In this document: in pieces, positions 5,104 to 62,253 of the stretch | Position numbering within the stretch: position 1 is the first letter of the stretch | Layout of the letters: each line of letters opens with the position of its first letter | From: Candidatus Latescibacterota bacterium | GTDB taxonomy: Bacteria > Latescibacterota > UBA2968 > UBA8231 | DNA length: 64,000 nucleotides | Assembly (NCBI GenBank): GCA_964291625.2 | Contig: OZ220089.1 | Span: 320,001-384,000 of the forward strand | Direction of reading: 5' to 3' | Translations under genes and position numbers: made by a program | Notes under the pieces: model-generated | Told to the model about the DNA's origin: nothing | Seen by the model: the letters and a program-made list of their open reading frames with translations, nothing else | The model's database searches: none

Positions 5104-5116
5104 CCGTCCTCCTTCC

Positions 5117-20472: not shown

Positions 20473-20473
20473 T

Positions 20474-24823: not shown

Positions 24824-24839
24824 CGGAGGCCGCCGCGCC

Positions 24840-26737: not shown

Positions 26738-26750
26738 CGCGGGCCTCCCT

Positions 26751-27443: not shown

Positions 27444-27461
27444 GGTACCACACCTCCTGTT

Positions 27462-34517: not shown

Positions 34518-34520
34518 GGC

Positions 34521-37035: not shown

Positions 37036-40000
37036 AGGTGCTTCCTCTCGATGGTGAGGCGCCGCCGTTCGCAGAACTCCATCATCCGGGGCGTCACCTG
37101 GGCATTGCCCCGCTCTCCCTGGGTGATGACATCGCCGAAGGCATCCACGGCCTTCTGCCATTCGCCCAGCTGCTGATAGCACACCCCCACGTTCATCTTG
37201 GCCGCCAGGCCGCTGGAGGTCATCGAGTACTGCCGCCACACGGCTTCAAGGGGGCCGATGGCTTGGCGGATCAGGTCGTGGTCGTCTTCTGCGAGGGCCC
37301 GGTTGAAGGCCTCCATGGCGCCGCTGTAGTCCCGGAAGGCGACCGCCTCCCGCACGTCCCGCAGCACCCCTTCGGCCTGCCGGGCGGCCTCGGATTCCGG
37401 GAAGTCGGCCTGGAGCCCCTGGAACAACTCGTAGGCCCGGTCGTAGTCGCCGGCGTTGTAGCTCATCTCGGCCAGGGTGTACCTGGCCGTGGGCAGGTGA
37501 CGCCCCCCGGGGTAACGGGTCAGGTATTCCTCCATGGCCTGCCGCACCGCGGCCTGGTGCTCTGCCGAGGGCTCCGCCGGCGCCTCGTTGAGCAGACACC
37601 AGGCGATGTTGTAGAGGGCCTCCTCGGCCAGCCCGGTCTCCGGGAAGCGCCGGATCACCTGTCGGTAGGTCTGGCGGGCCTCCCCGTAGGCCCCCGAGTT
37701 GTAGCGGCTCTCGGCCAGGCGGAAGAGGGCATCGGCGGCCACGTCCAGGTCCGGGTACTGGTCGACCACCCCCGCGAAGAAGGGGATGGCCCTGCTGAAG
37801 CGGGCCTTGTTGAAGTGCGCATAGCCAAGGTAGTACCGGGCATACCCGGCATTCGGATGCCCGGGGTAGTCGGCCAGCATCCGGCCGAAGCTGGCTGCGG
37901 CCAGGGCGGCGGCGTCGGTCTGGAGCGCTGCCAGGCCGCGCAGGAACAGGAGGTCGGCGGCGAAGAAGCCCCTCGGAAAGGCGCGCAGACCCGCGTCGGC
38001 GCGGTCGAAGGCGCGCGCGAAGTCCTCGGTCCGCACCGCGGACTCCGCCTGCAGGAACCAGGCCTTCTCGCGCAAGTGGTACTGCCGCTCCTCCGGGAGG
38101 GGCCCCTCCTTCAGATCCAGCCCGAGGATCTCCTCGCAGGCGGCGAAGGCGTCGGCGTAGCGGCCCTGCCGGTTGGCGATCTCCGCCTCCGCCAGCAGGT
38201 GCTCGGCGCGCTCGAGGGGACCCGCCGCCGCGTCGGCCATCTGCCGGTAGATGGCCTGGGCCTGGCCGTAATCCCCCAGGTTGGCGTAGGCGGCCGCCAG
38301 GAGGCGCCGCGCCGCGGAGGACAGCTCCGGGTCGGTCCACTCCCGGTTCAGCTCTTCGAGGGCCTCGGAGTACCGCTTCATTCGGAACAACAGGGAGCCG
38401 CGGCTGTACGCCGCCCGCTGCCCCAGGTCGGGGTCGCCCTGGTCGATGACCGCGGCGAAATGCGTCAGGGCTCCCTCCTGCTCTCCCAGCTCCATGGAGG
38501 CGGAGGCGAGCAGGTAGTGGAGAGCCTGACCCTCGGGCCGGCCCTTCGCCTCCAGGCCTTCCTGCAGCACCGCCACCGCCTGCCGGTGCTCTCCCTGCCG
38601 CACCAGGAGCTGCCCGGCCTCCAGGCGCGAGCGGGCGAAGAGCTCGGCTTCCCGGCCCACGGCCAGCAGCTCCCTCAGGGCGCGCTCCTGGTTTCCGGCC
38701 TCCCTCTCCACGATGCCCAGCTCGAAGCGGGCCACGTCCTGTTCGGGCTTCTCCGCCAGCTCGTCGATCACCGTGCGATACGTCTTCGCCGCCATGGCGT
38801 GGTCGCCGAGGCCATGGTGGGTCCGGGCGATCTGGAAGAGGGCGCTCTGGCGGTACCCCTCGGCGTTGGGGGCCTCGGCCACGCTTCCCAGAAAGACCAG
38901 GGCCTCACCCATCTTGTCCGGCTGGTCCTGCAACTGGATGGCCAACCCCAGGTTGAACCGCAGCTCCACGTCGTAGGGGGACCCCGGGTAGGCCGCCAAG
39001 GTGGCGCGCAACTCGCTCTCGGCGCGGCGGTAGTAGTCCAGACGCTCCTCTTCCGGTTGCCTCTCCGCCACGCGGAACCAGGCCCGGGCGATCTGCAGGG
39101 CCACGCCCTCGACCGCGAGGCCGGCCCGTGCGGCCGCGGCCTCGTAGTTCGCCCGGTACACCTCGTACTCACGCACCGCCTCCTCGTAGTGCTCGGTCTC
39201 GAAGTAGCGGTTGGCCAGCAGGAGCTGCATGCGCGCCTTCTGCACCACATCGTCGGTCGCCTCGATGGCCTGGTGGTACACGGCGACGACGGCCGCGAAG
39301 TCCCCCCGCCGGTAGTGCATGTCCGCCTGGCGCAGGTACGCCTCTTCGGCCAGCCGCTGCTCCTCGGCGAAACGTGAGGCCACCAGTTGGAAGGCCTCCT
39401 CGGCCTCGGCGTACTGACCGGTCTTCTCGTGGCACTCCCCGACGCGGATGAGGGCCTTGGCCGCCAGGTCGAGAGCCGTCTCGTCCACCAGGCCGGCGAT
39501 CTTCTGCCGCTTCATCTGCAGGATCTCGCGCTCCGACATCTCCTCGATGCGCTGGGAGTCGACCAGCCGCTGGTAGAAGGGGACGGCCTCCCGGTAGTTC
39601 TCCAGCGCGAAGTGGGCCTCGCCGATCTGGAACAGGGCCCGGCTGCCGCGGTAGCCGCCGGGAAAGCGCTCCACGAGACGTTCGAAGGCGGTTATGCTGT
39701 TGCGGTAGTCTTCCCTGTCATAGTGGGCCCAGCCCACATCGTACATCGCCTGCTCCACATAGGCGCTGGACGGATAGCGCTCGATGAGCAGGGCGGCCCC
39801 CTCGATGGTGCGCTCGTAGTCCTGGATGGCGTACCAGCAGGCCACGGCGCGGCTGCGGGCCAGGGCCTTCAGCGCGTCCACGGTGGACAGCTCCTCGGTC
39901 CTGACGAAGGCGTCGGCCGCCTCCCCGAAGAGGGACCTGGCTCGGTCCTGGTACCGGGAGCGCCGCTCCGGGTCGCGGCTCCTGGCCGCGCTGGCGAGGG

Positions 40001-40283
40001 CTTCCTCGGCGGACTTGAAGTGCGCATTCCCGGTCTGGTACAAGGCCACTTCCTGCAGCGGCGCCGAGATTTCGCCGACGGTCACCGCCACGTCCTTCAT
40101 CTGCAGGAAACGGCTCTGGCTCCGGATGATGCGCTGGTAGGCCTCGATCGCCTGGTCGTAGGCTCCCGAGGCGTAGAACCTCTGGGCGTCGGCGAAGGTC
40201 GCCTGCATCTCCGGAGCCGTGGGCACCGACCGGGTGACGGCGATCATCACCGTCAGGCCTACCAGGGTGATCAACGCGACCAT
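37032..40283 (-). CDS. Large membrane-anchored tetratricopeptide repeat protein (BamD/CpoB-like repeats)
   Basis: N-terminal hydrophobic helix; many TPRs with xxYP/FP turns (ERYPSS, ERFPGG, AYPGSP, DYPGHP, QYPDLD, RFPETG, RYPGGR, DFPESE). Confidence 0.88.
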   Translation of the reverse strand: MVALITLVGLTVMIAVTRSVPTAPEMQATFADAQRFYASGAYDQAIEAYQRIIRSQSRFLQMKDVAVTVGEISAPLQEVALYQTGNAHFKSAEEALASAARSRDPERRSRYQDRARSLFGEAADAFVRTEELSTVDALKALARSRAVACWYAIQDYERTIEGAALLIERYPSSAYVEQAMYDVGWAHYDREDYRNSITAFERLVERFPGGYRGSRALFQIGEAHFALENYREAVPFYQRLVDSQRIEEMSEREILQMKRQKIAGLVDETALDLAAKALIRVGECHEKTGQYAEAEEAFQLVASRFAEEQRLAEEAYLRQADMHYRRGDFAAVVAVYHQAIEATDDVVQKARMQLLLANRYFETEHYEEAVREYEVYRANYEAAAARAGLAVEGVALQIARAWFRVAERQPEEERLDYYRRAESELRATLAAYPGSPYDVELRFNLGLAIQLQDQPDKMGEALVFLGSVAEAPNAEGYRQSALFQIARTHHGLGDHAMAAKTYRTVIDELAEKPEQDVARFELGIVEREAGNQERALRELLAVGREAELFARSRLEAGQLLVRQGEHRQAVAVLQEGLEAKGRPEGQALHYLLASASMELGEQEGALTHFAAVIDQGDPDLGQRAAYSRGSLLFRMKRYSEALEELNREWTDPELSSAARRLLAAAYANLGDYGQAQAIYRQMADAAAGPLERAEHLLAEAEIANRQGRYADAFAACEEILGLDLKEGPLPEERQYHLREKAWFLQAESAVRTEDFARAFDRADAGLRAFPRGFFAADLLFLRGLAALQTDAAALAAASFGRMLADYPGHPNAGYARYYLGYAHFNKARFSRAIPFFAGVVDQYPDLDVAADALFRLAESRYNSGAYGEARQTYRQVIRRFPETGLAEEALYNIAWCLLNEAPAEPSAEHQAAVRQAMEEYLTRYPGGRHLPTARYTLAEMSYNAGDYDRAYELFQGLQADFPESEAARQAEGVLRDVREAVAFRDYSGAMEAFNRALAEDDHDLIRQAIGPLEAVWRQYSMTSSGLAAKMNVGVCYQQLGEWQKAVDAFGDVITQGERGNAQVTPRMMEFCERRRLTIERKHL

Positions 40284-40362: not shown

Positions 40363-43173
40363 TCATTCATCGAAGCCCAGGATGACCCGCAGGAAGGCCG
40401 AGGCGATGTCGAGGTCCTCCCTCTGCCGGGCGGGATCGCCGTACTGGCGCCGGGTCCACTTCACCCCCAGGTTGGTGGCGATGTTGTACCCGAAGTAGGG
40501 GGACCGGTTCGTCAGCTGCACCACCCGCACCACCTCCTCGTAGCTGTCGCGGCCGTCGGCCAGGTCCTCCTTGCGCAGGGGCAGGCCCGGCAGCCCCTGG
40601 GTGCCGAGCCACAGGTAGGTGCGCGGCGTGATGTGACAGGAGGCCTTGAGGATCGGTATCAGGGTCCACTCGTCAGCGAGGTCCACGGCCAGACTCTCCC
40701 GGGTCCTTCGCAGGACCAGTCCCTTGCCCTGGGCGATCAGCTGCCAGCGGTCCGACAGCTCCCTCACGTACTCGGCCCGGGCCACCATCGTCAGGCGGGT
40801 GATGGTGTCGGCAACCTGGTCGCTGCCGTCGGACAGGGTCGCCTCCTGCTGCTCGTTGACCGCATAGCGCAGGTTGCCGCCGAGTCGCAGGCCGGGGGCG
40901 GCGGTCAGGTCGGCCTCGACGTAGTGCTGCCGGTCCAGGCTGTCGCGATACTCCAGCTGGTCCGTCAGCCGGGTGGGGGCGTACGTGGGCCAGTGCTCGT
41001 GCCCGCCCAGGACCTCGCCATAGGTGATGTAGTTGTCGACGATGTCGTCATGGACCCGCTGCAGGCGGGTCTCGGCCCAGACCGAACCCCACCGGGGGTT
41101 GTGGCGGCGGAAGGTGACCACGCCGTAGGTGCTCTCGTTGCGGGCGCCGCTGACGATCCCCTCCGCCCGCAGACGGCCCGCGGTGAGGCGGACGCCGCCG
41201 GGCAGGTGCAGCACCCCGAAGGCGTGGTGCCCGCTCTGATCCAGCTCGTACGGGTAGTCCGAGTCCAGGTCGTCCTCGCGGTGGTCGGCGATCCCGTTGT
41301 TGTTGGCGTCCCGGCCATAGGCATACTCTTCCGGCTCCACGTCGTACAGCAGGAACGCCTCCAGGTAGTCGGGCACCTGGTTGCCGTTGCGGTTGGTGTC
41401 CGGAATCCGGTCGTTGTCCCGGTCGTTGCCCGGAAAGACCCCGTCCGGGTCGTAGGGGATCGTCGTGTAGTGGGGACTCGGCCGATGCCCGTGGCCGATG
41501 TCGGGATAGCGATCGTCGTCGTCGTTGTCCTGCACGAAGCCGCTGTCGTACTCCTCGGCGATCGAGAACAGCTCCCCCCCTGCCTCCACCCGGCCCCGGC
41601 GCCAGCGCCCGTTCACGTAGTACGCGCCCGCGTCCGTGCTGCTGCGCGCCCCGTTCCAGCGGCGGATGCCCCTCACCTCCCGATCCTCGCGGTACCCCGG
41701 CCGGCCGTCGGGAAACTCCCGGAACTCCACGTTGCGGGCGTACTCCCAGCGCACCTCGGCGTCGCCCCACTCCCAGGACCCGTTGAGCCCCCACAGGGCG
41801 CGGCCCGTCCACTCCCCCAGGTCCAGGCGCACCCACTCCAGGTTCGACATGTCCTGCACGTTGCCCCGGGACCGGAGGACGGCGGTCACCCCCGGCGTCT
41901 CCTTCCTCTCGAGGTAGCCGCTCGTGGAGACGAGGGTGTTGCCGCCCACGCGGTAGTGGAACTCGTACTCCTCCACCGCCGGCGCCGAGACGAACAGCGG
42001 CAGCACCTCGACCCGGTAGTCGTTGCCCACCAGCGCCTCCACCTGCACCTGCCGGACGAAGGGCTCCTGGCTCACGTCGAAGATGGCGATGATCTGCTCA
42101 TGGCCGTCGGCGCGATGGCCCGGAACGTCGGGCAGGGCCTCCACCCAGCGCAGCAGCTCCTCCAGGTTGACCTTGTCCGACACGTCCTCGCCCTGCAGGT
42201 GATCGCGCAGGTAGAGCAGGTCCGCGAAGCGCGTGCCCTGATCCAGGTAGACCGCCCGCCGGAACTGTCCGGAGAGCCGGTTCGTCGTGCCCACCGCCGT
42301 TGGATTCTGGCCGTTGATGCGGGCCAGGAAGGGCCGCAGGTCCGGCCGGTCCTCGCCGTTGATCTTCAGACGCACCTCCGATACCAGGGCGCCGGCCTGC
42401 AGGTCCTCCGGCGAATCGTCGGAGAACCGAACCAGGTAGCCCACGGGCAGCACCTGCTCGGCCTGCAGCCCGCCGCGCAGATCGAAGCTCTCCTGCTCGG
42501 CGTCGAAGATGTGGAAGTTCACCCCCGTGGCCCCCAGGGTCAGCGCTCCCAGCTCGACGTCGCCGTGGGCCCCCAGGAGCATCGCCGAGCTGCGGATCTC
42601 GGCGGCCGAGTCCCAGTGGTGCCAGGTGGGACCGCCGCCGTAGCGGCTGTCGGCGAAGGGCCCGGTGTAGCGCTGTCCGATGACGGCCACCCGGGTGTTG
42701 CCCACCTGGGTGTCCAGGCGGATGCCGTCGTATCCCGGCAGGGCCAGCGTCAACGGCGTGAAGAGGGTGCGGATCTCCTCCCCGTAGATCAGGCTCGCCG
42801 CCCACCGGGAGTGCGACTCCCGGGCCACCAGGTTGCGCTCGAAGCGACCGAAACGGGGGAGGGTGCGGAAGGACTTGGGCAGGGCCGACGTCGTCGTCGA
42901 CCGGGTCTCCCGCCACTCGTACACGTCGTAACCCTGAATCAGGAAGTTGCCCAGAGGACCGTAGTAGTTTCGCCGCGAGAACCGGGTGAACTCCGGCAGG
43001 GTGTAGTCCTCGAAGCCGTAGTTGAGGTAGGAGGGATCCGACCGGTAGAGGAAGGAGCGGCCCGAGACGTCCTGGGCGAAGCCGAGATGCGGGTCCTCGG
43101 CCCCCGCCCGACCCGGGTCCCCCCAGGCCGGCACGAAGACCAGCGTCCAGACCGCGAGCCTCGCCCGTCTCAT
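40363..43173 (-). CDS. Uncharacterised ~930-aa secreted/outer-membrane protein, paralog A
   Basis: Signal peptide; FTPLTL, SDDSPED, GNVQDMSNL, DNDDDDRYPD, DGVFPG, DANNNGIADHREDD; alternating beta-strand C-terminus FLRVILGF; ATGA overlap with the upstream paralog. Confidence 0.8.
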   Translation of the reverse strand: MRRARLAVWTLVFVPAWGDPGRAGAEDPHLGFAQDVSGRSFLYRSDPSYLNYGFEDYTLPEFTRFSRRNYYGPLGNFLIQGYDVYEWRETRSTTTSALPKSFRTLPRFGRFERNLVARESHSRWAASLIYGEEIRTLFTPLTLALPGYDGIRLDTQVGNTRVAVIGQRYTGPFADSRYGGGPTWHHWDSAAEIRSSAMLLGAHGDVELGALTLGATGVNFHIFDAEQESFDLRGGLQAEQVLPVGYLVRFSDDSPEDLQAGALVSEVRLKINGEDRPDLRPFLARINGQNPTAVGTTNRLSGQFRRAVYLDQGTRFADLLYLRDHLQGEDVSDKVNLEELLRWVEALPDVPGHRADGHEQIIAIFDVSQEPFVRQVQVEALVGNDYRVEVLPLFVSAPAVEEYEFHYRVGGNTLVSTSGYLERKETPGVTAVLRSRGNVQDMSNLEWVRLDLGEWTGRALWGLNGSWEWGDAEVRWEYARNVEFREFPDGRPGYREDREVRGIRRWNGARSSTDAGAYYVNGRWRRGRVEAGGELFSIAEEYDSGFVQDNDDDDRYPDIGHGHRPSPHYTTIPYDPDGVFPGNDRDNDRIPDTNRNGNQVPDYLEAFLLYDVEPEEYAYGRDANNNGIADHREDDLDSDYPYELDQSGHHAFGVLHLPGGVRLTAGRLRAEGIVSGARNESTYGVVTFRRHNPRWGSVWAETRLQRVHDDIVDNYITYGEVLGGHEHWPTYAPTRLTDQLEYRDSLDRQHYVEADLTAAPGLRLGGNLRYAVNEQQEATLSDGSDQVADTITRLTMVARAEYVRELSDRWQLIAQGKGLVLRRTRESLAVDLADEWTLIPILKASCHITPRTYLWLGTQGLPGLPLRKEDLADGRDSYEEVVRVVQLTNRSPYFGYNIATNLGVKWTRRQYGDPARQREDLDIASAFLRVILGFDE

Positions 43174-45884
43174 CCCTGGAAGGGCTCCAGTCCCAGCAGC
43201 AGGCGGACGAAGAGCAGAGAGCGCTCGACATCGAGCTGCTTCCGGCTCCTGGTCTCGAATCGAAGGGTCTTGGCGAGGTATCCCGCGTTCAGGGTCAGGT
43301 AGTAGCCTTCGTACGTGGTGCGGTTGGTGATGGAGATGATGTAGTCCCTGCTGCCGTAGTCGACCTGGTGGTTGATCAGGTTCCTGTAGGTGCTGGACAG
43401 AAAGGGGAAACCCTGGGCGCCCGCGCTCAGGCTCGTCTGGGGTGACAGGGCGACGGTGGCCACCACCATGGGATAGAAGTAGCGCTCGGAGACGGGATGG
43501 ACATGGAAGTCACCGCCCTGCCGCCGGTAGGCCATGTACTTGGCCCTGGGGGTGACCGTCCACCGGTCCCTCTTCCAGGTGTAGCCGCTGCGCAGGACCC
43601 ACGCCCACTCCTGGATCGTGTCGGCGGGCTGGAAGGCGGAGGCCCGCTGGAGATTGACCGTGTGCTTGAGACGGCTGTTGATCTCCAGGCCCTTCACCCG
43701 GATGAAGGTGGCGTCGAGGTGAGCCGTGTTGACGAAGCTGTTCCTCATCAGCAGCGGGTCTTCGACCTGCGTCAGACCCTGGACGCTCGCCGTCGAGGTG
43801 GGATCGATCGGCAGCCCGTGGGGCGTGAAGAAACCGAACTGGGGCGAATCGTCGGCGATGTCGTCATGGACCCGCTTGAGGAAGTTGGAGAAGTCGATCG
43901 AGGCATGGGGAAAGAGGGTGCGCCGGTAGTTCAGGCGCACATAGTTGACGCGGTTCTCGCCCGGCCCCCAGATCTCGCGGACATGGTAGCGCCCCACGCT
44001 CAGGTCCAGGGCCTGCACCGGCTCGATGGCGCCGAACAGGTGATACCCCTTCCTGTCCGTCGGATAGGGGTAGTCGGGCCGGAAGTCGTCCTCGCGGTGA
44101 TCGATGACCCCGTTGTTGTTCATGTCGTCGCCGTAGTCGTACTCCAGGGGATCGACATTGTAGAGCAGGAAGGGCTCGTTGTAGTCGGGCTCGGCGTTGC
44201 CGTTCTCGTTCACGTCGGTGCGGCCGTCCTGGTCGCGGTCGAGGCCCGGGAAGACGCCGTCCCCATCGCCGAAGCTCTTGTTGAGGAAGTGGAAGTCGGG
44301 CCACAGGTCCTTGTCGTCGTTGTCGTCCACCGTGTCGAGAATGACGGTGTCGTTGTACCTGTCCTGCCAGTTGGGAGCGACCTCCCCGAGGAAGGGACTG
44401 CCGAGGTCATCGGAGTAGGTCCAGTATTCCCGGCTCTGGACGGAGAGGGATGTGCCGTACAGGGGATCCATCCGGAAGAGCTCTCCCGCCAGGTGGAACC
44501 AACCGAGCTGCTTCCTGGCGTGGACGAAGAAGGCATCCGCCGTCTCCCGGTGCCAGCGGCTCCGTCCGATCGTGCTCGGATACTGGAGGTAGTTGAAGCT
44601 GCGGGCGTACTCGCCGCGCACCTCGAGTCCCTCCCGCTCCAGCTCCAGGCGCAGGCTGCCCGTGGTACGGCCGCTCTGTCGGCCGTACTCGAAGGAGACG
44701 CGGCGCAGATTGCCCAGGTCCCCCACGTTCCCCACCTGGGACGCCACGTCGCGGAAGAAGGTGGCCCGCACGACCCGGAGATCCGGGTTGCTGGTGGTGG
44801 CCGCCGCGGCGGGCAGGAAGACCTCGGACAGACTGATGCGGTAGTCGTTGGCCACCATGGCGTTGAATCGAAGGGACTCGACCTCGTCGCGCATCTCCTG
44901 GGGGATCTTGAACCAGTAGATGAGGTACTCGGTGCCGTTGGCCTCCAGGAAGCCCTGGGCGCCGGGGTCCTCAAGGGGCAGGTCCCCCTTGAGGAACTCG
45001 ATGTAGGGGGGAATCGTGAAGCCCGGCCGGAAGGCCCTGTCCCCGTTCGGAAAGTGTGGATTCACCACGTCGGCGTCGTGGCGCGTCACGCTGACTTCCA
45101 CGAGCTCGTTGAGAGGGCCCTCGACGCGAACATCGTAAACCCGCGCGCCACGTCCATCGTCCTCCGAGCCATCGCTGATCTTGACGGCCAGATAGGCGGG
45201 CGGGTTCTTCCGCCGCGAGGGCAGCACCCCCTTGAGGCTGTTGTCGCCAAAGCCGACGAAGCTGTCGGTGCGCAGGAGGTTGGCGTAGGAGAGGCTCACC
45301 CTCAGGGCTCCCGCCCTGTGCGCGAGGTGACCGCCCAGCAGGTAGGTGGGCTCGTTCGTCAACTGGTGGAAGTCGTTGTCGTCGTCGTTGTAGATCGGCC
45401 AGTCGAAGCGCGACGACACGGCGGTGGCCTGCGTGCCTCCGAGATCCACGTCCCAGCGGATCCCGTTCAGCTGGGCCAAGTCCAGGGTCAGGGGAGTGAA
45501 CTTGGTCCGTATCCGGTTCCCCACCATCAGCCGGCTGGCCCAGCTCTTGTGGGTATCGTGGGCGACGACGAGGTTGCCCACGAGGGCCCGGAACTGGGGG
45601 TCCTTGTTCAACAGGCTCCCGGGATCCCGCTCCATGGGCCGCGTCTCCTGGCTGCGCCAGACTTCGGTGCCGTCGAGGAGGAAGTTGCCCAGCTCGTCGA
45701 AGACGGGAGCCCGGATCTGCGACCACAGAGAGGCCGTGTACTCCCTGTACCCGGAGCGCGCGTAGTATTGCTCGTAGTCGCGGACCGGCTCGTAGAGGAG
45801 CTGGCTCTCCCCGGGTGCCGAGGAGAGTACCAGCCAGGCCCCCAGGAGAGCAGCAGCGAGACCAGGACGTTTGTGCACCGTCAT
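43170..45884 (-). CDS. Uncharacterised ~900-aa secreted/outer-membrane protein, paralog C
   Basis: Start MTVHKRPGLAAALLGAW (signal peptide); same motifs (FTPLTL, GNVGDLGNL, DNDDKDLWPD, DGVFPGLD, DMNNNGVIDHREDD). Confidence 0.8.
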   Translation of the reverse strand: MTVHKRPGLAAALLGAWLVLSSAPGESQLLYEPVRDYEQYYARSGYREYTASLWSQIRAPVFDELGNFLLDGTEVWRSQETRPMERDPGSLLNKDPQFRALVGNLVVAHDTHKSWASRLMVGNRIRTKFTPLTLDLAQLNGIRWDVDLGGTQATAVSSRFDWPIYNDDDNDFHQLTNEPTYLLGGHLAHRAGALRVSLSYANLLRTDSFVGFGDNSLKGVLPSRRKNPPAYLAVKISDGSEDDGRGARVYDVRVEGPLNELVEVSVTRHDADVVNPHFPNGDRAFRPGFTIPPYIEFLKGDLPLEDPGAQGFLEANGTEYLIYWFKIPQEMRDEVESLRFNAMVANDYRISLSEVFLPAAAATTSNPDLRVVRATFFRDVASQVGNVGDLGNLRRVSFEYGRQSGRTTGSLRLELEREGLEVRGEYARSFNYLQYPSTIGRSRWHRETADAFFVHARKQLGWFHLAGELFRMDPLYGTSLSVQSREYWTYSDDLGSPFLGEVAPNWQDRYNDTVILDTVDDNDDKDLWPDFHFLNKSFGDGDGVFPGLDRDQDGRTDVNENGNAEPDYNEPFLLYNVDPLEYDYGDDMNNNGVIDHREDDFRPDYPYPTDRKGYHLFGAIEPVQALDLSVGRYHVREIWGPGENRVNYVRLNYRRTLFPHASIDFSNFLKRVHDDIADDSPQFGFFTPHGLPIDPTSTASVQGLTQVEDPLLMRNSFVNTAHLDATFIRVKGLEINSRLKHTVNLQRASAFQPADTIQEWAWVLRSGYTWKRDRWTVTPRAKYMAYRRQGGDFHVHPVSERYFYPMVVATVALSPQTSLSAGAQGFPFLSSTYRNLINHQVDYGSRDYIISITNRTTYEGYYLTLNAGYLAKTLRFETRSRKQLDVERSLLFVRLLLGLEPFQG

Positions 45885-45886
45885 GG

Positions 45887-48739
45887 CTACAGGATCCGAG
45901 CCTGGATGAAGAACTCGCTGAGCCGCTGGACCCGCCGGCTCGGCAGGTTGACGAACTCGGAGCGGCTGGAACGGAATCCGAGGTTCGTGCTCACGTCGTA
46001 GCCGGTGTAGTTGCTCAGGTTCTGGATGAGGACGATCCAGTGCCGGGCGTCGAAATCCCTTGACGGCGCCTTGGCCTCGCGGAACCGGTGGAGCCACGGC
46101 AGTCCCTGCACGCCCGCGCGAAGAGTCGTGTCCTCACTCAGCGCGTAGTCGGCCCGCAGAATGGGGATGATCTCGTGGCTCTCCAGGGGCATGAGGAGAT
46201 CACCCGGCGCCGTCCTCCGCCGCAGGGTGAACTTCACCATCGGACTCAGAGTCAGCCTGCCTCTGACATGGGCGTAATCGGCCTTGCTCACCAGGCTCCA
46301 GTCGAGGATGTCGTCCCCCAGTCCCGGCCGGCTGTCCCTGCGGTTGTTCCACTCGACCTTGGCTGCCTGGATGAGGTTCAGTCCCTCGACGCCGGTGTAG
46401 TGGCCCTTGGCGAAGAGGGTGCTCACGAGGCTGTTTTCCATCAGCATGAGATCGGGCCGCGGACGGATGGCGACATTGACCTGGGTCTGGGGCTCGATCA
46501 CCGCCTCGAAGAGTGGGTTGGGTATGTCGTCGCGTACCCGCTTGAGACGCCAGCGGGCGATGAATCGCCCCGCTTCGCTCCCTTCCGCCGTGTAACCGAG
46601 CTCTCCATAGGTCACCTCGTTTCGGCCTGCCGCCGCTCGCTGCCGGACCCGGTACCGCCCGAGGCGCAGCCCTGCTCTCTCGAAGGGTTGCACCGAGGCA
46701 AAGCCGTGGTAGCCCCGACTGTCCAGGTCATAGGGGAGGTCCGCCTTGTTGTCGTTCTCGCGCACGTCGACCACGCCGTTGTTGTTGAAGTCCTCCCCGT
46801 ACACGAAGTCGTCGGGTTCGACGTAGTACATGAGGAAGGGCTCGAGATAGTCCGGGTACTGGTTGCGGTTGACGTTGGTGTCCACCACCCCGTCCTCGTC
46901 CTGATCCAGGCCCGGGAAGACCCCGTGCCCGCCGCCCAGGCCGTACTCCCCGGCCGCATCGGGCCGGATGGCGTCCACGTCGATCCCCGAGGCGTTGGCA
47001 TAGGCTATGTAGACGGGGTCCAGAGGGTCCCAGTGTTCCACCTTGTCCGGCCACTCGTCGCCGTCGTCGTTGTCCTCCACCAGGTCCCACCCCAGGACGG
47101 CCTGCTGGCCCTCGGACCACACGGGCAACGAGACCTGGTAGGTCGGAGGGACGTGGAAGATCTCCAACCCCACGTCCCCCAGGGACCACTCCTGCAGGAG
47201 ACGCACGTACCACGCGTTCGTGGCGCGGTTCTCCCGTCGCCCCAGGAAGGGGAACCGGGCGTGCTGGACGTTGCTGATGTACTCCGCCTCCAGGTTGGCC
47301 CCGCCGATCTTCGCCTCCACCGTGCTGCCGAACTGGACCAGACCCGTGGGGAAGCCGTAGTCGACGGTGACCCAGCCCATGTTGGACCCGTCCTGCACGT
47401 TCCCCGGCGCCCGCTTGACGTTGTGCCAGTCGCTCCAGAGCGACGTGCCGCCGCCGAAGAAGCCATAGGCGGCGCCCACGTCCAGGCTGTAGTCCCCCGA
47501 CACCTGCACCCGGAACCGCAGGCTCTGCGGATCACCGGGCACCTCGTAGCGCAGTACCAGCAGGTCCGTGCCGCCCACCTGGAGGGGGAAGGGCTCCTCC
47601 ATGGGGATGCCCTCCCTGGCGAAGAGTCCCGAACGCTCGACGAAGATCCGGTCGGCGTTGAAGATCCGCGGGGCCCACGCTCCGTCCCGGCGGATGTGGG
47701 GAACCTCGCTCACCTCCACGACCTGGGGGATCAGCTTCACCTCGGGATCCACGTCCAGCCGCTGCTGACCGGCGTACAGCTCCACGGCGTACACATCGAC
47801 ACCGTGCTCATCCTCCGGCGAGTCGTCGCTGATGACCAGGTAGAAGGAGGAGGTGCCGGTCAGACGGGAAGGGACATCCCCGCGGAGGCTCGTGTTCCGC
47901 TGGGCCGCATCCTGCAGGTGTAGGTTCACGTAGGATGCGCCGAAGGTCAGGATGTCGCCGAACTGGCTGCTCCAGTGGCCGCCGAAGAGGTAGTGGGTGA
48001 AGTGACGGTCACCCGTCAGCGGCCGGGGCACGCGGGACGAGATCAGGGAGAAGCTGTTGCGGTGGGAGGACGCGTCCCAGCGGAGCCCCTCCAGACGGGA
48101 GAGGTTCAGGGTCAGCGGAGTGAACCGGCCGTCGAGGAGGTTGCCGATCATGAACCGGGTGGACCAGCCCCCGAAGGCGTCACGGAGGATCACCATGTTG
48201 CGGAACCGGCCCAGGCCCCAACCCGGCACCCTGCTGCTGCGCGCGGGGTCCAGGGTGCCGTACTCCTCGATCCGCAGGATCTCCACGCCGTCGACCAGGT
48301 AGGAACCGAAGGGATCGTAGGTGGGACGCTCGGGGCGGAATCCGTAGTCCCGGTAGCTGAGGAAGCTGTAGTTCTCGTAGCGCTCGTCCCAGAGCGGACG
48401 CAGCTCACGGTTGAGGAAGTCCTGCTGGCCCGACCAGTAGTCCTCGGGGGAACGCTGCGCCAGGCAGGGCTCGGCCAGACTGCCCGCCAGCACCGACAGG
48501 GCAAGACCTGCCACGGCCGCGCGCACTCTGCGGCCAGCGCATCCGGCGGCGGGCCACCGGCCGGCGCGGGGGCCGCCGGCGATCAGGTGGCCCGCATGGA
48601 GCTGGAGCCGATGGAAAGGACCGTCCCGGAGCCGGGACGCGGCCCGGTGCCCAACCTGGGTGCCAATCTCAAGGACAGGCGCAACCCCTCCGGGCCCATC
48701 ACCCGTGCCGTTCGTCGTCTCGGAGGCCTCGGTTGGCAA
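45887..48739 (-). CDS. Uncharacterised ~900-aa secreted/outer-membrane protein, paralog D (start uncertain; GTG 48526 possible)
   Basis: Signal-like VRAAVAGLALSVLAGSLAEPCLAQ; FTPLTL, SDDSPED, GNVQDGSNM, DNDDGDEWPD, GVFPGLD, DFNNNGVVDVREND. Confidence 0.78.
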   Translation of the reverse strand: MPTEASETTNGTGDGPGGVAPVLEIGTQVGHRAASRLRDGPFHRLQLHAGHLIAGGPRAGRWPAAGCAGRRVRAAVAGLALSVLAGSLAEPCLAQRSPEDYWSGQQDFLNRELRPLWDERYENYSFLSYRDYGFRPERPTYDPFGSYLVDGVEILRIEEYGTLDPARSSRVPGWGLGRFRNMVILRDAFGGWSTRFMIGNLLDGRFTPLTLNLSRLEGLRWDASSHRNSFSLISSRVPRPLTGDRHFTHYLFGGHWSSQFGDILTFGASYVNLHLQDAAQRNTSLRGDVPSRLTGTSSFYLVISDDSPEDEHGVDVYAVELYAGQQRLDVDPEVKLIPQVVEVSEVPHIRRDGAWAPRIFNADRIFVERSGLFAREGIPMEEPFPLQVGGTDLLVLRYEVPGDPQSLRFRVQVSGDYSLDVGAAYGFFGGGTSLWSDWHNVKRAPGNVQDGSNMGWVTVDYGFPTGLVQFGSTVEAKIGGANLEAEYISNVQHARFPFLGRRENRATNAWYVRLLQEWSLGDVGLEIFHVPPTYQVSLPVWSEGQQAVLGWDLVEDNDDGDEWPDKVEHWDPLDPVYIAYANASGIDVDAIRPDAAGEYGLGGGHGVFPGLDQDEDGVVDTNVNRNQYPDYLEPFLMYYVEPDDFVYGEDFNNNGVVDVRENDNKADLPYDLDSRGYHGFASVQPFERAGLRLGRYRVRQRAAAGRNEVTYGELGYTAEGSEAGRFIARWRLKRVRDDIPNPLFEAVIEPQTQVNVAIRPRPDLMLMENSLVSTLFAKGHYTGVEGLNLIQAAKVEWNNRRDSRPGLGDDILDWSLVSKADYAHVRGRLTLSPMVKFTLRRRTAPGDLLMPLESHEIIPILRADYALSEDTTLRAGVQGLPWLHRFREAKAPSRDFDARHWIVLIQNLSNYTGYDVSTNLGFRSSRSEFVNLPSRRVQRLSEFFIQARIL

Positions 48740-48746
48740 GTTGCTC

Positions 48747-50813
48747 TCAGTAAACCACCCCTACGACGCCAGTGGCGGTTTCGGTCCCGGCATCGAGCTC
48801 CACCTGGACGCGGTAGATGTAGTTGCCCGGCGGCACGAGCCGGCCCTCGTCGTCCCTGCCGTCCCAGTATCCGGGGACGATGCCTCGGGCCCCGCTGACG
48901 AGGCGCAGGTAGACGCCGGCCGCCAGGGGGGCCGGCTTCAGATCGCGCACCAGAGTGCCCCGGAGGTCGAAGATGCGCACTCCCAGGTCGCGGGGCGTGT
49001 CGACCTTGCTGAGAATCAACTCGATGACGGTGTCGTCGTTGATGTCGTCGCCGTTGGGTGTGAAGACGGAGGGATTCGCGCGGACCCTCGACAGGGCATT
49101 CTCGGTGGAGGTCGTGGGGACCACCGCCCAGGAGAAGAGCTCGCCCGTGCTCTCGTCCATACCGACGCTCTCGGCCACGTTGACGGGGTTGTCCGAACCC
49201 GGGCTGAAGAGGAACATGCGGAACTCGTGGCTGTTCGCATGGGAGCGGGCCCGAAAGGGTATCTGCAGCTGGTCGATGTCGCGAAGCGGCTCGGTAAAGG
49301 CGAGTTCCAGCGCATCCTGGGTGGAGGTCCAGTCCGCCAGAATCCCCTGGAGCCGACCGTCGTCGACCAGCCGGGCCTCGCTGGGGACGGCGATGAGCAG
49401 CCGCTCGATCCCCGCGTCTTCGGGGGCAAAGACCAGGTGCAGGGTGCACACGAAGAGGGTGTCCGCGCCCATTGAGACCCGGTTGGGCGCAACCCTGGAA
49501 TGGGCGCCCGAAACGGCGAGTTCCTCGATGGTGTAGTCCAGCTCCAGGCTGTGCAGCGCCGGCGTGCGCCGCTGATCCCTGGACTCCAGGGAAACCCGGT
49601 ACTGGAGCCAGGCCCCCGGCTCCGAAGCGGGGAACCAGACGTCTCCACTCGACAAGGGACTGCTCCAACCGCGCCCGGGATCCTCGAAGTCCTCCGTCGA
49701 GTTCCCCGTCCGGAACTGGACGAAGAGATCGGTGCGCACGGGGACCTCCGCATCCCAGCGGACCCGGCCGAAGTTCTTGGCCTGGCCGGGCGCGCCAAGG
49801 GAGAGGGGCTCGGAGAGATAGGTGCCCTCATCGGTGTACCCGTCTCCGTAGACCTCCACCTCGGCGACCTTGGGCGGGCTCACCGAGTTGATGTCGACGA
49901 TCACGATACGCACATACCGGGTCCAGACCGGTGTGAAACGCACCTCCGTCCAGTCGAACTTCTCGATATCGTGTCTGACGCCCACTTCGGTCCAGCGGAC
50001 CTGGTCGTCGCTGACCTGTACCGAGTAGCCCCTGAGCGAATTCTCCTCCAACTGGCCAGGATTGCTCCCTCTTGTGACGACGCGGACGCTGCTGACGTTG
50101 CGCCTCACCTGCAGGTCGACGCTGGCCGAGTAGTTGAGGGCCGAGGTCGGGGGGTCCCAGGAGGTGTTCAGCTTCCCGTCCACGACCTCCTTGCGGTTGC
50201 TCGGTTTGTCCAGGGCCAGATTCCGGCCGCGAATCTGACTCAGAACCAGGCTTCCCTGCCGGGTGCCCACATCGATCCCCGCCTCGAACCCGGAGACGAC
50301 CTCGATCTCCGGGTCGAGCAGGTCCTGGATCCGGGCGCGCTCGACCGATCCCTGCTGTACGGTCTGCCACGCGGCATCATCCTCGGGATCTGCCGTCGTC
50401 CACTCCAGGCCCTGCTGCTCCGCGGCGGTCCAGTACCATCCCTGCACCACCTGGTTCGTGGTCGTCTCGATGCGGTACTCGTCGGTGACCACCGCGGCGA
50501 TCAGGCCGTTGCCGCCGCCGCCGCCGCGGTTGACGACCTTCACGGCGATGTCATTCCCCGACTTGCCGTCCTGGACCTCGATGGCATAGGCCTGCATCCG
50601 GGTACCGAGGGAATCCCCGCCGAGGAGCACGCCGTTGAAGTAGACCTCGTAGCTGTCCACGGCGGCTACGTGGAGCTGGCCCTCGAGAGGGGCCTCGGAA
50701 ACGAAGTTGGTACGGAAGTAGGAGGTGCTGCGCCACGAACTCTGCTCCCACGTCTGCGCGGTCGCCGCAGCCGTGCAGCAGAGCACGATCAGGGAGGTGA
50801 AGCGGATAGACAT
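48747..50813 (-). CDS. Secreted protein: galactose-binding-like + discoidin (F5/8C) domains + FlgD-Ig/T9SS type-B-like CTD
   Basis: Signal MSIRFTSLIVLCCTAAATAQ; NLALDKP...VVDGKLNTSW...YSVQVSDD...RYVRIVI...AEVEVYG; CTD PSVFTPNGDDIND...IFDLRG...WDGRDDEGRLVPPGNYIY. Confidence 0.82.
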   Translation of the reverse strand: MSIRFTSLIVLCCTAAATAQTWEQSSWRSTSYFRTNFVSEAPLEGQLHVAAVDSYEVYFNGVLLGGDSLGTRMQAYAIEVQDGKSGNDIAVKVVNRGGGGGNGLIAAVVTDEYRIETTTNQVVQGWYWTAAEQQGLEWTTADPEDDAAWQTVQQGSVERARIQDLLDPEIEVVSGFEAGIDVGTRQGSLVLSQIRGRNLALDKPSNRKEVVDGKLNTSWDPPTSALNYSASVDLQVRRNVSSVRVVTRGSNPGQLEENSLRGYSVQVSDDQVRWTEVGVRHDIEKFDWTEVRFTPVWTRYVRIVIVDINSVSPPKVAEVEVYGDGYTDEGTYLSEPLSLGAPGQAKNFGRVRWDAEVPVRTDLFVQFRTGNSTEDFEDPGRGWSSPLSSGDVWFPASEPGAWLQYRVSLESRDQRRTPALHSLELDYTIEELAVSGAHSRVAPNRVSMGADTLFVCTLHLVFAPEDAGIERLLIAVPSEARLVDDGRLQGILADWTSTQDALELAFTEPLRDIDQLQIPFRARSHANSHEFRMFLFSPGSDNPVNVAESVGMDESTGELFSWAVVPTTSTENALSRVRANPSVFTPNGDDINDDTVIELILSKVDTPRDLGVRIFDLRGTLVRDLKPAPLAAGVYLRLVSGARGIVPGYWDGRDDEGRLVPPGNYIYRVQVELDAGTETATGVVGVVY

Positions 50814-50840
50814 CAGGAGGTTTCCCCTGCCGATAGAAAC

Positions 50841-50874
50841 AAATGGGTGGCCGGTTTGCACCGGCCACCCATTT
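50841..50874 (-). terminator. Perfect 15-bp stem-loop between the first and second genes of the long operon
   Basis: AAATGGGTGGCCGGT-ttgc-ACCGGCCACCCATTT, followed on the minus strand by GTTTCT. Confidence 0.7.
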
Positions 50875-50916: not shown

Positions 50917-52758
50917 TTACTTGAGCAGAGTTACGCGCTTGCTCTCGGCAAAGCTCCCGGCGACCATCCGGAATACATAGACCCCGCTGCCGACCTTGGC
51001 GCCGCGAGAGTCCGTGCCGTCCCAGGTGACGTGGTAGGAACCGGGATCCAGCATCTGGTCGACCAGTCTGGCCACCTCCTGGCCGGCCACGTTGTGCACG
51101 GTCAGGGTCACCGACTCGTGCAGTTCGGGAACGGCGATGCGGACCGTGGTCTCGGGGTTGAAGGGGTTCGGGAAGGCGTCACCCAGTGCGAAGGCTCCGG
51201 GCTTTGCCCCCTCGACTTCGGAGATCCCGCTTTCCAACTCACCAACCCGTGCCCGGGCGATGTCCATTGGGAAGTGCGCCAGATAAGGCCCGGCCCCCAC
51301 GCCGATGTACAGCCCGTCGGCCTCGTTGTCGTTGTCCATCAACATGGCGATGCCGCCGAGTGCGCCCGGGGGCATGTGGATTCCCACGTTGAGCTTGAAC
51401 AGACCGAACCCGTCGGGTCCCAGGACCGTGGCCCATTCAGGCGCTTCCCAGCCGCCGACGAGGCTGATTCCCCAGCGGGTGGCCAATATGCTGATCGGAA
51501 TGTTCGAAGGGATCCCCAGGGCCTCCCTCTCCTCACTGGTGTAGTAGTCGAGGTAGAAGTCGCCGTTCTGGTTCTTCCAGACCAGATTGAGGTCGTGATC
51601 GGTCTTCGTCGGGCCCGCTCCGGGGCGCCCGAGATAACTGGTCCCGTAGTAGCCCGTGTCGTCGACATCGAACCCGGCCACGGACTTGAAGTTTCTGGGG
51701 GCGCCTTCGTCGTTGTAGACCTGCGGGAAGTAGTCCAGGAAGGACAGGACGTCCACCAGCTCTCCGGTGGCGCGGTCGAACCTCTGCACCGCGGGACCTG
51801 GCGAACCGTAGGGCTCCACGTGGTCGGCGACGGTGGCGTAGAGCAGGCCGTCGTCGGCAACCCAGGGATGGTGTCGGGCGTTGGTCACCATGGTGGTGAT
51901 GCCGCGAACCTCCATTGCGATGTACCCGCCGTCGGCGTTCTCCCAGCTCTCGTCCAGCAACGCGGTGCCCGCCTCGCGATCGATGATCGCTCGGTACAGG
52001 CCGCCCGGCGGGTTCTGGAAGCGGATGACGTACGCCACTCCGTCCTCGGCCGGATCCATCTGCAGGTAGCCGACGTCCTTCCAGTCGTTCCCGCTCTCGG
52101 CCGGAACCGCGTTGACCCACGGGATGGCGAAGGTCTCGAAGGCTTCGGGATTGGCGAGCAGGTCGGTGCCCATTTCGCTCACCCTGATGTTCCACACGCC
52201 ATCGATCTGCTGGGGGAACCAGATCTCCGGGGGGCTCTTCGTGTCGTCGACCACCGAGTTCTGCCAGGGGGCCATGGTCCCGCCCGCGTAGGTGGGCTTG
52301 GAGTCGACGTCGATGGCGAACAGGTAGGTCCTGTAGGCGCCGGAAGCCACCGCCGCTCCCGTGTAATCCGTGCCGTCCCAGGTGATGGTGTTCGAGCCCG
52401 CGTCGAACCGGTCTCCGGCACTGATGTAGACCAGGGTATCCAAGCCGGCGGCGCGGATCAGGCTCTGCTCGATGCCTCCCACCCCGAAAGGCTCTCCGCC
52501 GTACTGGGGATCGGCATCCAGGGTGTACACGGCGAGCCAGACCATGGCCGAGGGAACGCCTTCGATGGTGAAAGGGATCTCGAGCGGGGAACCGTCAAAA
52601 CTGTGGTCCACGTCCTCGGTCGAGAGTTTCAGCACCGTCGGCGCACCACCCTTCCAGTGGGCGTCGAAGCTCTGCCAGTCCGGGTTCGACTGGCCGAAAT
52701 CGTTTGCCGCGACCGTCCCGACCAGCCCGGAACACAGCAGAAGGATCGCCTTTTTCAT
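50917..52758 (-). CDS. Secreted protein with N-terminal FlgD-Ig-like domain, probable beta-propeller core and T9SS type-A-like/FlgD CTD
   Basis: AAGGAG RBS; signal MKKAILLLCSGLVGTVAA; internal ITWDGTDYTGAAVASGAY; C-terminal FPNPFNPETT...WDGTDSRGAKVGSGVYVFRM...KRVTLLK. Confidence 0.85.
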   Translation of the reverse strand: MKKAILLLCSGLVGTVAANDFGQSNPDWQSFDAHWKGGAPTVLKLSTEDVDHSFDGSPLEIPFTIEGVPSAMVWLAVYTLDADPQYGGEPFGVGGIEQSLIRAAGLDTLVYISAGDRFDAGSNTITWDGTDYTGAAVASGAYRTYLFAIDVDSKPTYAGGTMAPWQNSVVDDTKSPPEIWFPQQIDGVWNIRVSEMGTDLLANPEAFETFAIPWVNAVPAESGNDWKDVGYLQMDPAEDGVAYVIRFQNPPGGLYRAIIDREAGTALLDESWENADGGYIAMEVRGITTMVTNARHHPWVADDGLLYATVADHVEPYGSPGPAVQRFDRATGELVDVLSFLDYFPQVYNDEGAPRNFKSVAGFDVDDTGYYGTSYLGRPGAGPTKTDHDLNLVWKNQNGDFYLDYYTSEEREALGIPSNIPISILATRWGISLVGGWEAPEWATVLGPDGFGLFKLNVGIHMPPGALGGIAMLMDNDNEADGLYIGVGAGPYLAHFPMDIARARVGELESGISEVEGAKPGAFALGDAFPNPFNPETTVRIAVPELHESVTLTVHNVAGQEVARLVDQMLDPGSYHVTWDGTDSRGAKVGSGVYVFRMVAGSFAESKRVTLLK

Positions 52759-52924
52759 GAGTTGCTCCTTTTCTCCGCCCTCCATGACGAGCCCGGTTCA
52801 ATCCGGCTTTGAGGGGTGAGATTTGGTTCGTGACCTGCTATCTCCATGCCGGGTTTCGGCAGGGCCACTAAAGAGGCCACTATTGATTCTGCCTGCGGCT
52901 CAATCCTTTGGCTCCTTCTCGTTC

Positions 52925-58448: not shown

Positions 58449-58506
58449 GGGATGGCTCTCCTTGTGCGACGGCGACGGGGATGCGGCCCCGGCCAGGCTG
58501 GCACCC

Positions 58507-60459: not shown

Positions 60460-60757
60460 GGGCTCGGCCTTCCGGGGGCTTGCCCGGGCGGGGGTGGGCA
60501 TCGGGTGCGGCCTGGGTTGTGCCGGGGAGGGCTGAACCTACGGGAGGCGCCCAGGCGCGACAACCGACCTGACCGTGTCCCCATGGTGACAGGCGTCCTG
60601 CCGGCAAGCGGGGCGGCCTCTGCCGAAGCTGCGACCTCCCGCCTCGAGGCTCCACCCCTTCAAGCCGCGCCTTGCCCCCTGCTCGCGGTCCCCGCTAACT
60701 TGCCAACATCCACGCAGATGCGGCCCTCGGGCTGCCAGCCACGCGGTGGGAGGCACG

Positions 60758-62191: not shown

Positions 62192-62253
62192 GCGGTCCCT
62201 TGGCGCTCGGCAGGTCCTCCCGGCGCCTGATCGCCGTGGAGGACGAGGTCCCG

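Follow-up and report, generated by a model that had tools for sequence, protein, structure and literature searches.

Organization of the barrel genes

A 64,000-nt stretch of the genome of a Candidatus Latescibacterota bacterium (contig OZ220089.1, positions 320,001 to 384,000; hereafter the window), with a G+C content of 0.64 to 0.75 in 2-kb steps, carried on its minus strand three closely coupled genes (nt 40363-48526). Their products, designated barrels A, B and C, are predicted outer-membrane beta-barrels of an apparently undescribed family, encoded downstream of secreted proteins that bear C-terminal type IX secretion system (T9SS) tails, and a role in docking such cargo is proposed for them below. 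As listed in Table 1, gene C comes first in the direction of transcription; its stop codon was separated by 2 nt from the start of gene B, the stop codon of B overlapped the start of A by 4 nt, and across all four trios found in this genome the C-B junctions measured 1 to 3 nt and the B-A junctions -4 to +4 nt. The end at nt 48739 given in an earlier note, which had been made by reading the letters of this stretch, corresponded to an in-frame TTG upstream of the GTG start of barrel C at nt 48526. Signal peptides were present, and each trio barrel protein possessed only 0 to 1 cysteine.

Barrels A, B and C shared 31% to 33% identity. In a four-way alignment B and C were 33% and 31% identical to A, respectively, and the fourth paralog of the window was 87% identical to A; the divergent layout of this fourth copy recurred in three relatives (L030-L032). 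Thus, the three divergent tandem paralogs plus a fourth that the earlier note had described were borne out by the open reading frames and identities, and the motifs that it had listed were all present, in order, in the four-way alignment (FTPLTL, SDDSPED, GNVxD, DNDDxD..PD and YGxD.NNNG..D.RE.D, and likewise GVFPGxDxDxD..NxNxN..PDYxE.FL.Y.V, DDI, QG.P and N...Y.GY). Many of these motifs were invariant across an alignment of 25 family sequences with identities of 24% to 57%, and their sharing is, to judge from the alignments, far beyond chance.

Contigs from two libraries labelled metatranscriptomic mapped onto the operon (in run X11 with 0 to 16 differences over 397 to 633 nt), which is no proof of transcription, since these are assembled contigs that may include carried-over DNA. 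A scan of the operon region for promoters and terminators gave counts at or under the shuffled expectation.

Table 1. Genes of the barrel module and conserved regions of barrel A, with positions in the window
Feature	Position (nt)	Strand	Description
Barrel A (P1)	40363-43173	minus	936 amino acids; ATG start
Loop-6 Asp/Asn-rich stretch of barrel A	41239-41559	minus	Residues 539-645; four DxDxDG-like motifs
Loop-4 inserted domain of barrel A	41839-42501	minus	Residues 225-445; predicted beta-sandwich plus two helices
Barrel B (P2)	43170-45884	minus	904 amino acids; ATG start precedes a signal-peptide-like stretch
Barrel C (P3)	45887-48526	minus	879 amino acids; GTG start precedes a signal-peptide-like stretch
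Fourth paralog	53632-56436	plus	Recent copy of barrel A, divergently transcribed
622-residue secreted protein, first module gene	50917-52785	minus	General (type-A-like) T9SS C-terminal domain
704-residue lectin-like cargo	48747-50861	minus	F5/8 type C (discoidin) domain and type-B-like T9SS C-terminal domain
1083-residue tetratricopeptide repeat (TPR) protein	37032-40283	minus	N-terminal hydrophobic segment
409-residue DUF4159 protein	35806-37035	minus	N-terminal membrane segment; PF13709, 97 bits
416-residue lipoprotein	34521-35771	minus	TonB-C-like (AgmX/PglI) C-terminal domain; N-terminus LLSC

Predicted structure of the barrels

The model obtained with AlphaFold2 for barrel A from a 25-row alignment (predicted local distance difference test score, pLDDT, 76; predicted template modelling score, pTM, 0.73) possessed 26 long strands, as counted from the secondary-structure listing, not from coordinates. 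Counted back from the C-terminal strand, turns of 2 to 6 residues alternated with loops of 3 to 220 residues, an arrangement typical of barrels that have short turns in the periplasm and long loops facing outward, which would place both ends in the periplasm. About 75 residues at the N-terminus were poorly ordered, and no N-terminal plug was seen. The proteins thus combined the general features of outer-membrane beta-barrels, namely signal-peptide-like N-termini, 26 strands, short turns and structural neighbours from the outer membrane, and the predicted monomer is a large transmembrane barrel, as the earlier note had held probable.

In a Foldseek search with this model, MtrB ranked first (E 1.7e-9; template modelling (TM) scores 0.27/0.35), followed by SlpA, OmpG, LptD, TonB-dependent receptors and ushers, and VIA-align gave Z scores of 10 to 13, with the longest overlaps to MtrB (431 residues, Z 11.3), SlpA (414 residues) and SprA (402 residues). 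All top neighbours were outer-membrane barrels and no single one stood out; MtrB, LptD and SlpA, the best of them, reached TM-scores of 0.18 to 0.35 at 8% to 10% identity. The rank of MtrB, together with the 26 strands counted in the model, the strand number of MtrB, called for consideration of an MtrB-type porin-cytochrome electron conduit. With TM-scores of only 0.27 to 0.35, and since CxxCH was absent from all 11 genes of the locus, so that no haem-binding motif was nearby, a conduit of this type is scarcely credible and the candidate was rejected.

Two long loops could be distinguished, both predicted by strand parity to face outward. The domain inserted at loop 4 (about 220 residues) folded confidently when modelled alone (pLDDT 85, pTM 0.82), in line with the inserted domain recorded in the earlier note. 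Its best structural matches were immunoglobulin-like pilin and adhesin domains with Z scores of at most 5.5, which is under the noise level stated for the tool, and Foldseek returned nothing at E<=0.001; a predicted beta-sandwich is as far as the assignment of this fold goes.

Loop 6 was the best-conserved part of the family: columns conserved at 90% or more made up 26 of its 107 positions, compared with 16 of 291 in strands 12 to 26 and 16 of 221 in loop 4. The Asp/Asn-rich core of the earlier note is therefore real and is the most conserved region of the family. The loop contained the units DNDDxDRxPD, DxDxDGxPD, NxNxNxxPDYxEPF and DxNNNGxxDxREDD, and its pLDDT was low in the full model of barrel A. 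Among its invariant residues were the aspartates D551, D552, D584, D588, D602, D622 and D630. DxDxDG sites are known in the literature as a calcium-binding motif shape. A likeness to the calcium sites of thrombospondin type-3 repeats and EF-hands, also put forward in the earlier note, held for the DxDxDG-like shape of the motifs and failed at the level of profiles, since residues 540-650 of barrel A matched no Pfam family at E<=10 in searches whose HMMER filters drop most very weak hits. From the shape of these motifs, it is reasonable to suppose that loop 6 may bind calcium.

Family identity and distribution

Barrels A and C gave no Pfam match at E<=0.1, the sole match of barrel B was a chance one to DUF4429 (14.6 bits against a cut-off of 25), and NCBIfam gave chance-level traces only for the three. 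Three sub-regions of barrel A, the Asp/Asn-rich stretch among them, matched no Pfam family at E<=10, and a fourth gave a chance match to COOH-NH2_lig (E 0.34). A sequence search of the PDB with a profile of the 25-member family found no solved structure, the best E-values being 0.6 to 1.9, and a search for longer, fused forms of the family found none, which is weak evidence. By a word-indexed protein search 70 relatives were retrieved, of which the few with a source name were all called hypothetical protein; one record was labelled Candidatus Latescibacterota. Among 1.84 billion proteins the family profile detected 1186 clusters (50% identity) with E-values of 0.001 or less, and for 394 of these the E-value was 1e-30 or less. 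The nearest clusters of the ESM Atlas were unnamed and came from records labelled Latescibacterota and Gemmatimonadota, and the nearest named one was DUF6029 at 0.89, a lead only. Full-text searches, whose coverage lies outside subscription journals, found no description of the family in the literature on outer-membrane barrels, polysaccharide and T9SS of Latescibacterota, and returned nothing for Latescibacter* combined with T9SS or type IX secretion. Thus, the family remained as unassigned as the earlier note had left it, with no Pfam, NCBIfam or PDB sequence match and with unnamed homologues, and it appears to be undescribed, as neither a paper nor a curated model was found.

The place of SlpA among the best structural neighbours suggests a further alternative, a structural envelope scaffold joining the outer membrane to the cell wall or a surface layer in the manner of the 30-strand SlpA of Deinococcus. 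Such a scaffold would agree with the large periplasmic TPR partner encoded downstream (see below) and with weak SlpA_C (PF21620) matches in a few family members, for instance P0054 with 23.1 bits. That score is, however, under the cut-off of 35, SlpA_C had no match in barrels A, B and C themselves, Pfam scans of the barrels revealed neither an SLH domain nor an OmpA-like one for wall binding, and 25 diverged copies in cargo-linked cassettes poorly suit a housekeeping role, so that a scaffold function is regarded as quite unlikely.

Of 75 public loci, 55 were titled Latescibacterota, Latescibacteria or Latescibacter, 14 Gemmatimonad-, one Nitrospinota and five uncultured bacterium; the first 55 included single-cell genomes of Candidatus Latescibacter anaerobius. 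Sequencing runs containing this stretch were mostly sponge metagenomes, and to our knowledge the Latescibacterota have no cultured member. Relatives were also rich in candidate family matches, with up to 98 first-look candidates in one genome.

Paralog expansion and position clades

Gene calling performed here predicted 4147 genes covering 84.5% of the genome, and the family profile detected 25 full paralogs among them, with E-values from 1e-166 down to 0. A quick tree of these paralogs, as distinct from a careful search, separated a clade of 12 single-type barrels (support 100) from a clade of 13 trio-type barrels, in which the barrels at positions A, B and C of this genome's four trios each grouped into a clade of their own (99, 100 and 100 in the Shimodaira-Hasegawa-like approximate likelihood ratio test, SH-aLRT). 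One pair of paralogs (G000:C1:4213524-4216399 and G000:C1:4450718-4453333) looked damaged, one member being split or truncated, with matches in three pieces and an odd C-terminus, and the other having a TGA inside the match.

A cross-genome tree was then based on 12 trio loci, that is, the four of this genome and eight of the nine full-pattern loci from other genomes (L050 was omitted), with four single-type barrels as outgroup. Positions B and C (12 rows each) were monophyletic with a support of 1.0; position A (13 rows) was also monophyletic but with a support of only 0.35. The inner topologies of the A, B and C clades mirrored one another over the 12 loci. Because of these position clades and mirrored topologies, the trio appears to be old, to keep its order and to be copied as a whole. 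Together with the junctions of 1 to 4 nt, the clades fit an equimolar co-production of three non-redundant subunits. Clades and junctions lend indirect support to the hetero-oligomer that the earlier note had suggested but do not prove it.

A secretion-tail subtype linked to the barrels

The lectin-like cargo encoded just upstream of barrel C matched F5_F8_type_C with 54 bits and, in its tail, CHU_C with 27.3 bits (cut-off 27). When a tail profile built from the neighbours of barrels was run on the genome, 117 proteins ended in a T9SS-like tail, and 30 of these had a barrel gene at most three genes away, where the background would be 2.6%. A tree built from all 117 tails showed a clade of 29 (SH-aLRT 96, stem length 0.96) that includes the tail of the lectin-like cargo and contained 26 of the 30 barrel-adjacent tails; of its other three members two were encoded 5 to 6 genes from a barrel gene and the third about 15 kb away. 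The remaining four barrel-adjacent tails belonged to the first gene of each trio module and grouped with general tails.

The barrel-linked tails shared the motif TPNGDGxND...WDGRD...PPGxY...VAY, and a motif of the TPNGDGxND type is presumably typical of type B tails. Among 35 barrel-linked tails, 19 matched TIGR04131, the model for type B (best E 5.3e-7), and 20 matched TIGR04183, that for type A (best E 2.4e-4); they are thus better described as type-B-like than as clean members of type B. The link held in other genomes, where, of two profiles trained on this genome only, the barrel-linked one scored higher for 26 of 33 tails directly flanking a barrel versus 3 of 38 tails farther away. The type-B-like tail subtype thus occurs almost only beside these barrels. 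Position beside cargo with a type B C-terminal domain, a property of PorP/SprF barrels, was accordingly also found for the present family, in the CHU_C match, in the single clade of barrel-adjacent tails and in the TIGR04131 matches. A complex prediction for residues 27-879 of barrel C with the tail of the upstream cargo returned a score of 0.00 and no answer, controls not being run, and weighs neither way.

Gene content of the module and its surroundings

Two tail-bearing genes preceded the barrels in all four trio loci of this genome, and an orthologue of the 622-residue protein held the first position in each. This protein matched FlgD_ig (66 bits) and, just under the cut-off of 23, Por_Secre_tail TIGR04183 (21.9 bits), and its tail grouped with general C-terminal domains. 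A perfect 15-bp G+C-rich hairpin with a T-rich tail (nt 50841-50874, minus strand) lay between this first gene and that of the lectin-like protein, whose start it overlapped; it could be an attenuator or partial terminator within the operon.

Downstream of the barrels, the 1083-residue protein possessed TPRs of the YbgF type (TIGR02795, 1e-56 over six stretches) as well as matches to TPRs of the BamD/YfiO type; its gene came after the barrels in three of this genome's four trios and in many other genomes, and the DUF4159 gene recurred after it in other loci. The 416-residue lipoprotein matched NF033768 with 53.4 bits (cut-off 40), tonB_Cterm with 20 bits and, weakly, GltG and GltJ. A sister trio on contig 2 continued with genes for DUF5683, an fn3-like protein, DUF4159, MotA/ExbB, ExbD and ExbD. 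The order of two tail-bearing genes, three barrels and the 1083-residue TPR protein was observed in nine of the 75 loci, all from other genomes, and in other public loci these TPR and DUF4159 genes came after a single barrel. At single-type loci, one barrel gene was accompanied by genes for a CBM9-like protein and for two or three proteins with tails, as well as for a SurA-like prolyl isomerase, FG-GAP/ASPIC-UnbV and TPR proteins, and a DUF6785/DUF6784 membrane protein; DUF4838 proteins recurred in these single-barrel loci. In several of them a SurA-like gene with two prolyl isomerase domains came after the barrel (for example, L013:12798-14465 and L012:8576-10234); seven of the 11 genome matches to the SurA-like profile were within six genes of a barrel, and none was at any of the four trio loci. 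This gene context, with T9SS cargo upstream and the TPR, DUF4159 and TonB-C-like set downstream, is the main clue to the function of the barrels.

Further genes lay around the module. At nt 56439-63999 two DUF4838 proteins flanked a DUF6785/DUF6784 multi-pass membrane protein and an unassigned protein of 481 residues; the DUF6785 family had 27 copies in the genome and was recurrent near barrel loci. A gene of the formylglycine-generating-enzyme family (FGE-sulfatase; nt 33681-34520, minus strand) abutted the last module gene and, by clustering of neighbours, was not recurrent at other trio loci. A MotA/ExbB-ExbD pair (nt 26297-27461, minus strand) was encoded on the strand of the module, some 7 kb downstream of it, and about 10 kb downstream of the barrel module an Omp85/POTRA protein of 694 residues directly followed a TamB-domain protein of 1508 residues (nt 18403-25000, minus strand), which together look like an outer-membrane assembly pair of the TamA/TamB type. 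A LarA-type lactate racemase (nt 2773-5202, minus strand) possessed Lar_N and LarA_C over residues 44-452, followed by a C-terminal extension of about 350 residues that had no Pfam match.

Besides docking, the module could represent a capture-and-uptake conduit independent of SusC/SusD, in which lectins delivered by the T9SS would catch a glycan or other polymer and the wide barrel would pass it, with the putative calcium loop and the loop-4 domain as a gate energised via the TonB-C-like lipoprotein and ExbB/ExbD. Consistent with import are the lectin-type neighbours (F5/8 type C and CBM9-like proteins), the recurrence of FG-GAP/ASPIC-UnbV, TPR, DUF4838 and DUF6785/DUF6784 proteins in single-barrel loci, the TonB-C-like domain in the module with ExbB-ExbD-ExbD in the sister trio locus, the large lumen that 26 strands would give, and the presence of many diverged cassettes resembling polysaccharide utilisation loci. 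The barrels, however, lacked any Pfam match to a Plug domain or TonB_dep_Rec, showed only a trace of such a receptor in NCBIfam (10.9 bits against a cut-off of 323) and had no modelled N-terminal plug, whereas 24 Plug-domain matches were found elsewhere in the genome and none in barrel loci. Moreover, the trio module had no consistent set of glycoside hydrolases, and that of the window had no ExbB/ExbD of its own, the nearest pair being the one about 7 kb away. Import is the main rival of docking and is regarded, tentatively, as possible; import and anchoring may both hold.

The trio may also be the outer-membrane end of an energised envelope machine of a new kind, in which a heterotrimer of 26-strand barrels would be connected via the TPR scaffold, DUF4159 and the TonB-C-like lipoprotein to an ExbB/ExbD motor and would load, move or gate T9SS lectins; this is considered rather doubtful.

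Export in the opposite direction, through a pore for a polymer or the neighbouring proteins that would be independent of SprA, was also considered, since ushers and barrels of the PelB/BcsC and PgaA types were among the structural neighbours (Z 8.6 to 12), TPR partners are common among outer-membrane exporters and the adjoining genes encode secreted proteins. It is very unlikely in view of the generic nature of these structural matches and of a module devoid of polysaccharide synthase, OPX and usher-chaperone genes; in addition, with T9SS tails on the neighbouring proteins and SprA encoded in the genome, no second route is needed.

Relation to PorP/SprF and proposed role of the trio

In Bacteroidota, cargo of type B is reported to bind to, and depend on, cognate PorP/SprF barrels whose genes lie nearby; without such a barrel the cargo is not secreted, and the barrel also keeps it at the cell surface (PMC9143113, PMC12618676). 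The present genome encoded SprA (SprA_N 112.8 bits) and a PorV-like barrel (114 bits, under the curated cut-off of 250). PorP_SprF (PF11751) had no match in the genome, the barrels included, in a search that likewise gave no match in any control genome. In a survey of 151 genomes of the phylum, which are related and hence not independent, the barrel family was found in 94 and PorP_SprF, with weak matches of 20 to 28 bits, in 29. In the family to which the window belongs, all 63 genomes had the barrel and none had PorP_SprF; of the 30 genomes of a sister family, 25 had PorP_SprF and none the barrel; a further family had the barrel in 13 of 13 genomes and PorP_SprF in 0 of 13, and in one more family both were absent from all 19. 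Across the phylum, this complementarity of the two barrel types is suggestive, as far as profile matches can tell. Six PorP-like loci, from five barrel-less relatives and from G009, which has both families, had no type-B-like tail nearby and one general-type tail; the same pairing of tail and PorP in relatives thus received no support from these six loci.

With a probability of about 0.5, the barrel trio is a docking or anchoring platform for the secreted lectin-like cargo, which would do a job like that of PorP/SprF without being kin to it. Three non-interchangeable members (A, B and C) of a 26-strand barrel family would be made from one operon, would probably sit together in the outer membrane and would dock the lectin-like protein encoded just upstream by direct contact with its tail. 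The Asp/Asn loop would probably bind calcium and stiffen or close the wide pore, and the loop-4 beta-sandwich may make contacts at the exposed surface. A connection of this platform with the periplasm and the inner membrane may be provided by the giant TPR protein together with the DUF4159 proteins and the lipoprotein with its TonB-C-like domain, with ExbB/ExbD added in sister loci.

Several observations weigh against a docking platform. Type-B-like tails were absent from the surroundings of the six PorP-like loci, both families co-occur in four genomes, and the PorP_SprF matches in relatives on which the complementarity is based are themselves weak. The barrels have no detectable sequence kinship to PorP/SprF and are about 900 residues long, as compared with a profile of 273 positions. 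Barrel-linked tails match the type A and type B models about equally, so that type B denotes a resemblance, and each trio locus has a single type-B-like cargo for three barrels. Finally, a 26-strand pore together with a TonB-C-like protein and ExbB/ExbD would suit transport at least as well as anchoring.

Whatever its function, this genome devotes 25 genes of about 900 codons to the barrel family. Should a dedicated tail subtype have these barrels as its cognate partners, the T9SS outside Bacteroidota would use a different device for sorting and anchoring, with consequences for the question of how its cargo arrives at its destination. Should the barrels import substrates, they would offer an alternative to TonB-dependent transporters that works without a plug. 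Either way, a fixed A/B/C trio would be a rare obligate assembly of multiple barrel paralogs, and structural studies would find an obvious target in the conserved Asp/Asn loop.

Comparison with known systems

The closest structural neighbours, MtrB, LptD and Deinococcus SlpA, have 26, 26 and 30 strands, respectively, and so belong to a similar size class, but no cytochrome, LptE-like or SLH partner was found here.

In common with PorP/SprF (SprB-SprF and PG1035-PorP-PorE), the barrel gene adjoins that of a secreted protein whose tail is of a special kind, a given tail subtype is associated with a given barrel family, there is a periplasmic partner with TPRs, and the distribution of the two barrel types in the phylum is largely complementary. 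Apart from the lack of kinship and the difference in length already mentioned, the present barrels differ in their predicted 26 strands, in the conserved Asp/Asn loop and inserted beta-sandwich, in the three co-evolving paralogs of each module, and in their DUF4159 and TonB-C-like partners.

SusC/SusD-type utilisomes and TonB-dependent transporters likewise form many diverged cassettes of a large barrel with surface proteins of the carbohydrate-binding type, and TonB-C-like and ExbB/ExbD genes occur in or near the present module. Unlike them, however, the barrels described here have no plug and no match to the receptor profile, and the binding proteins are T9SS cargo instead of SusD lipoproteins. 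TonB-dependent transporters have 22 strands, versus the 26 counted here.

The outer-membrane platform of the Agl-Glt machinery of Myxococcus comprises GltA/B/H/K and the adhesin CglB (PMC9946355, PMC11761067). The platform resembles the present module in combining several barrels with TPR proteins, TonB-C-like proteins of the GltG/GltJ type and a motor of the TolQR/ExbBD type, and in holding a surface adhesin. No Glt profile matched the barrels, however, CglB is a lipoprotein and not T9SS cargo, and the GltG match of the lipoprotein in the window (36.9 bits against a cut-off of 650) reflects the shared C-terminal domain only. The Glt barrels are also, we assume, much smaller than those described here. 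Were the energised machine considered above to prove true, it would stand beside the TonB-dependent SusCD utilisomes and the myxobacterial Glt platform as a third solution, specific to an uncultured phylum.

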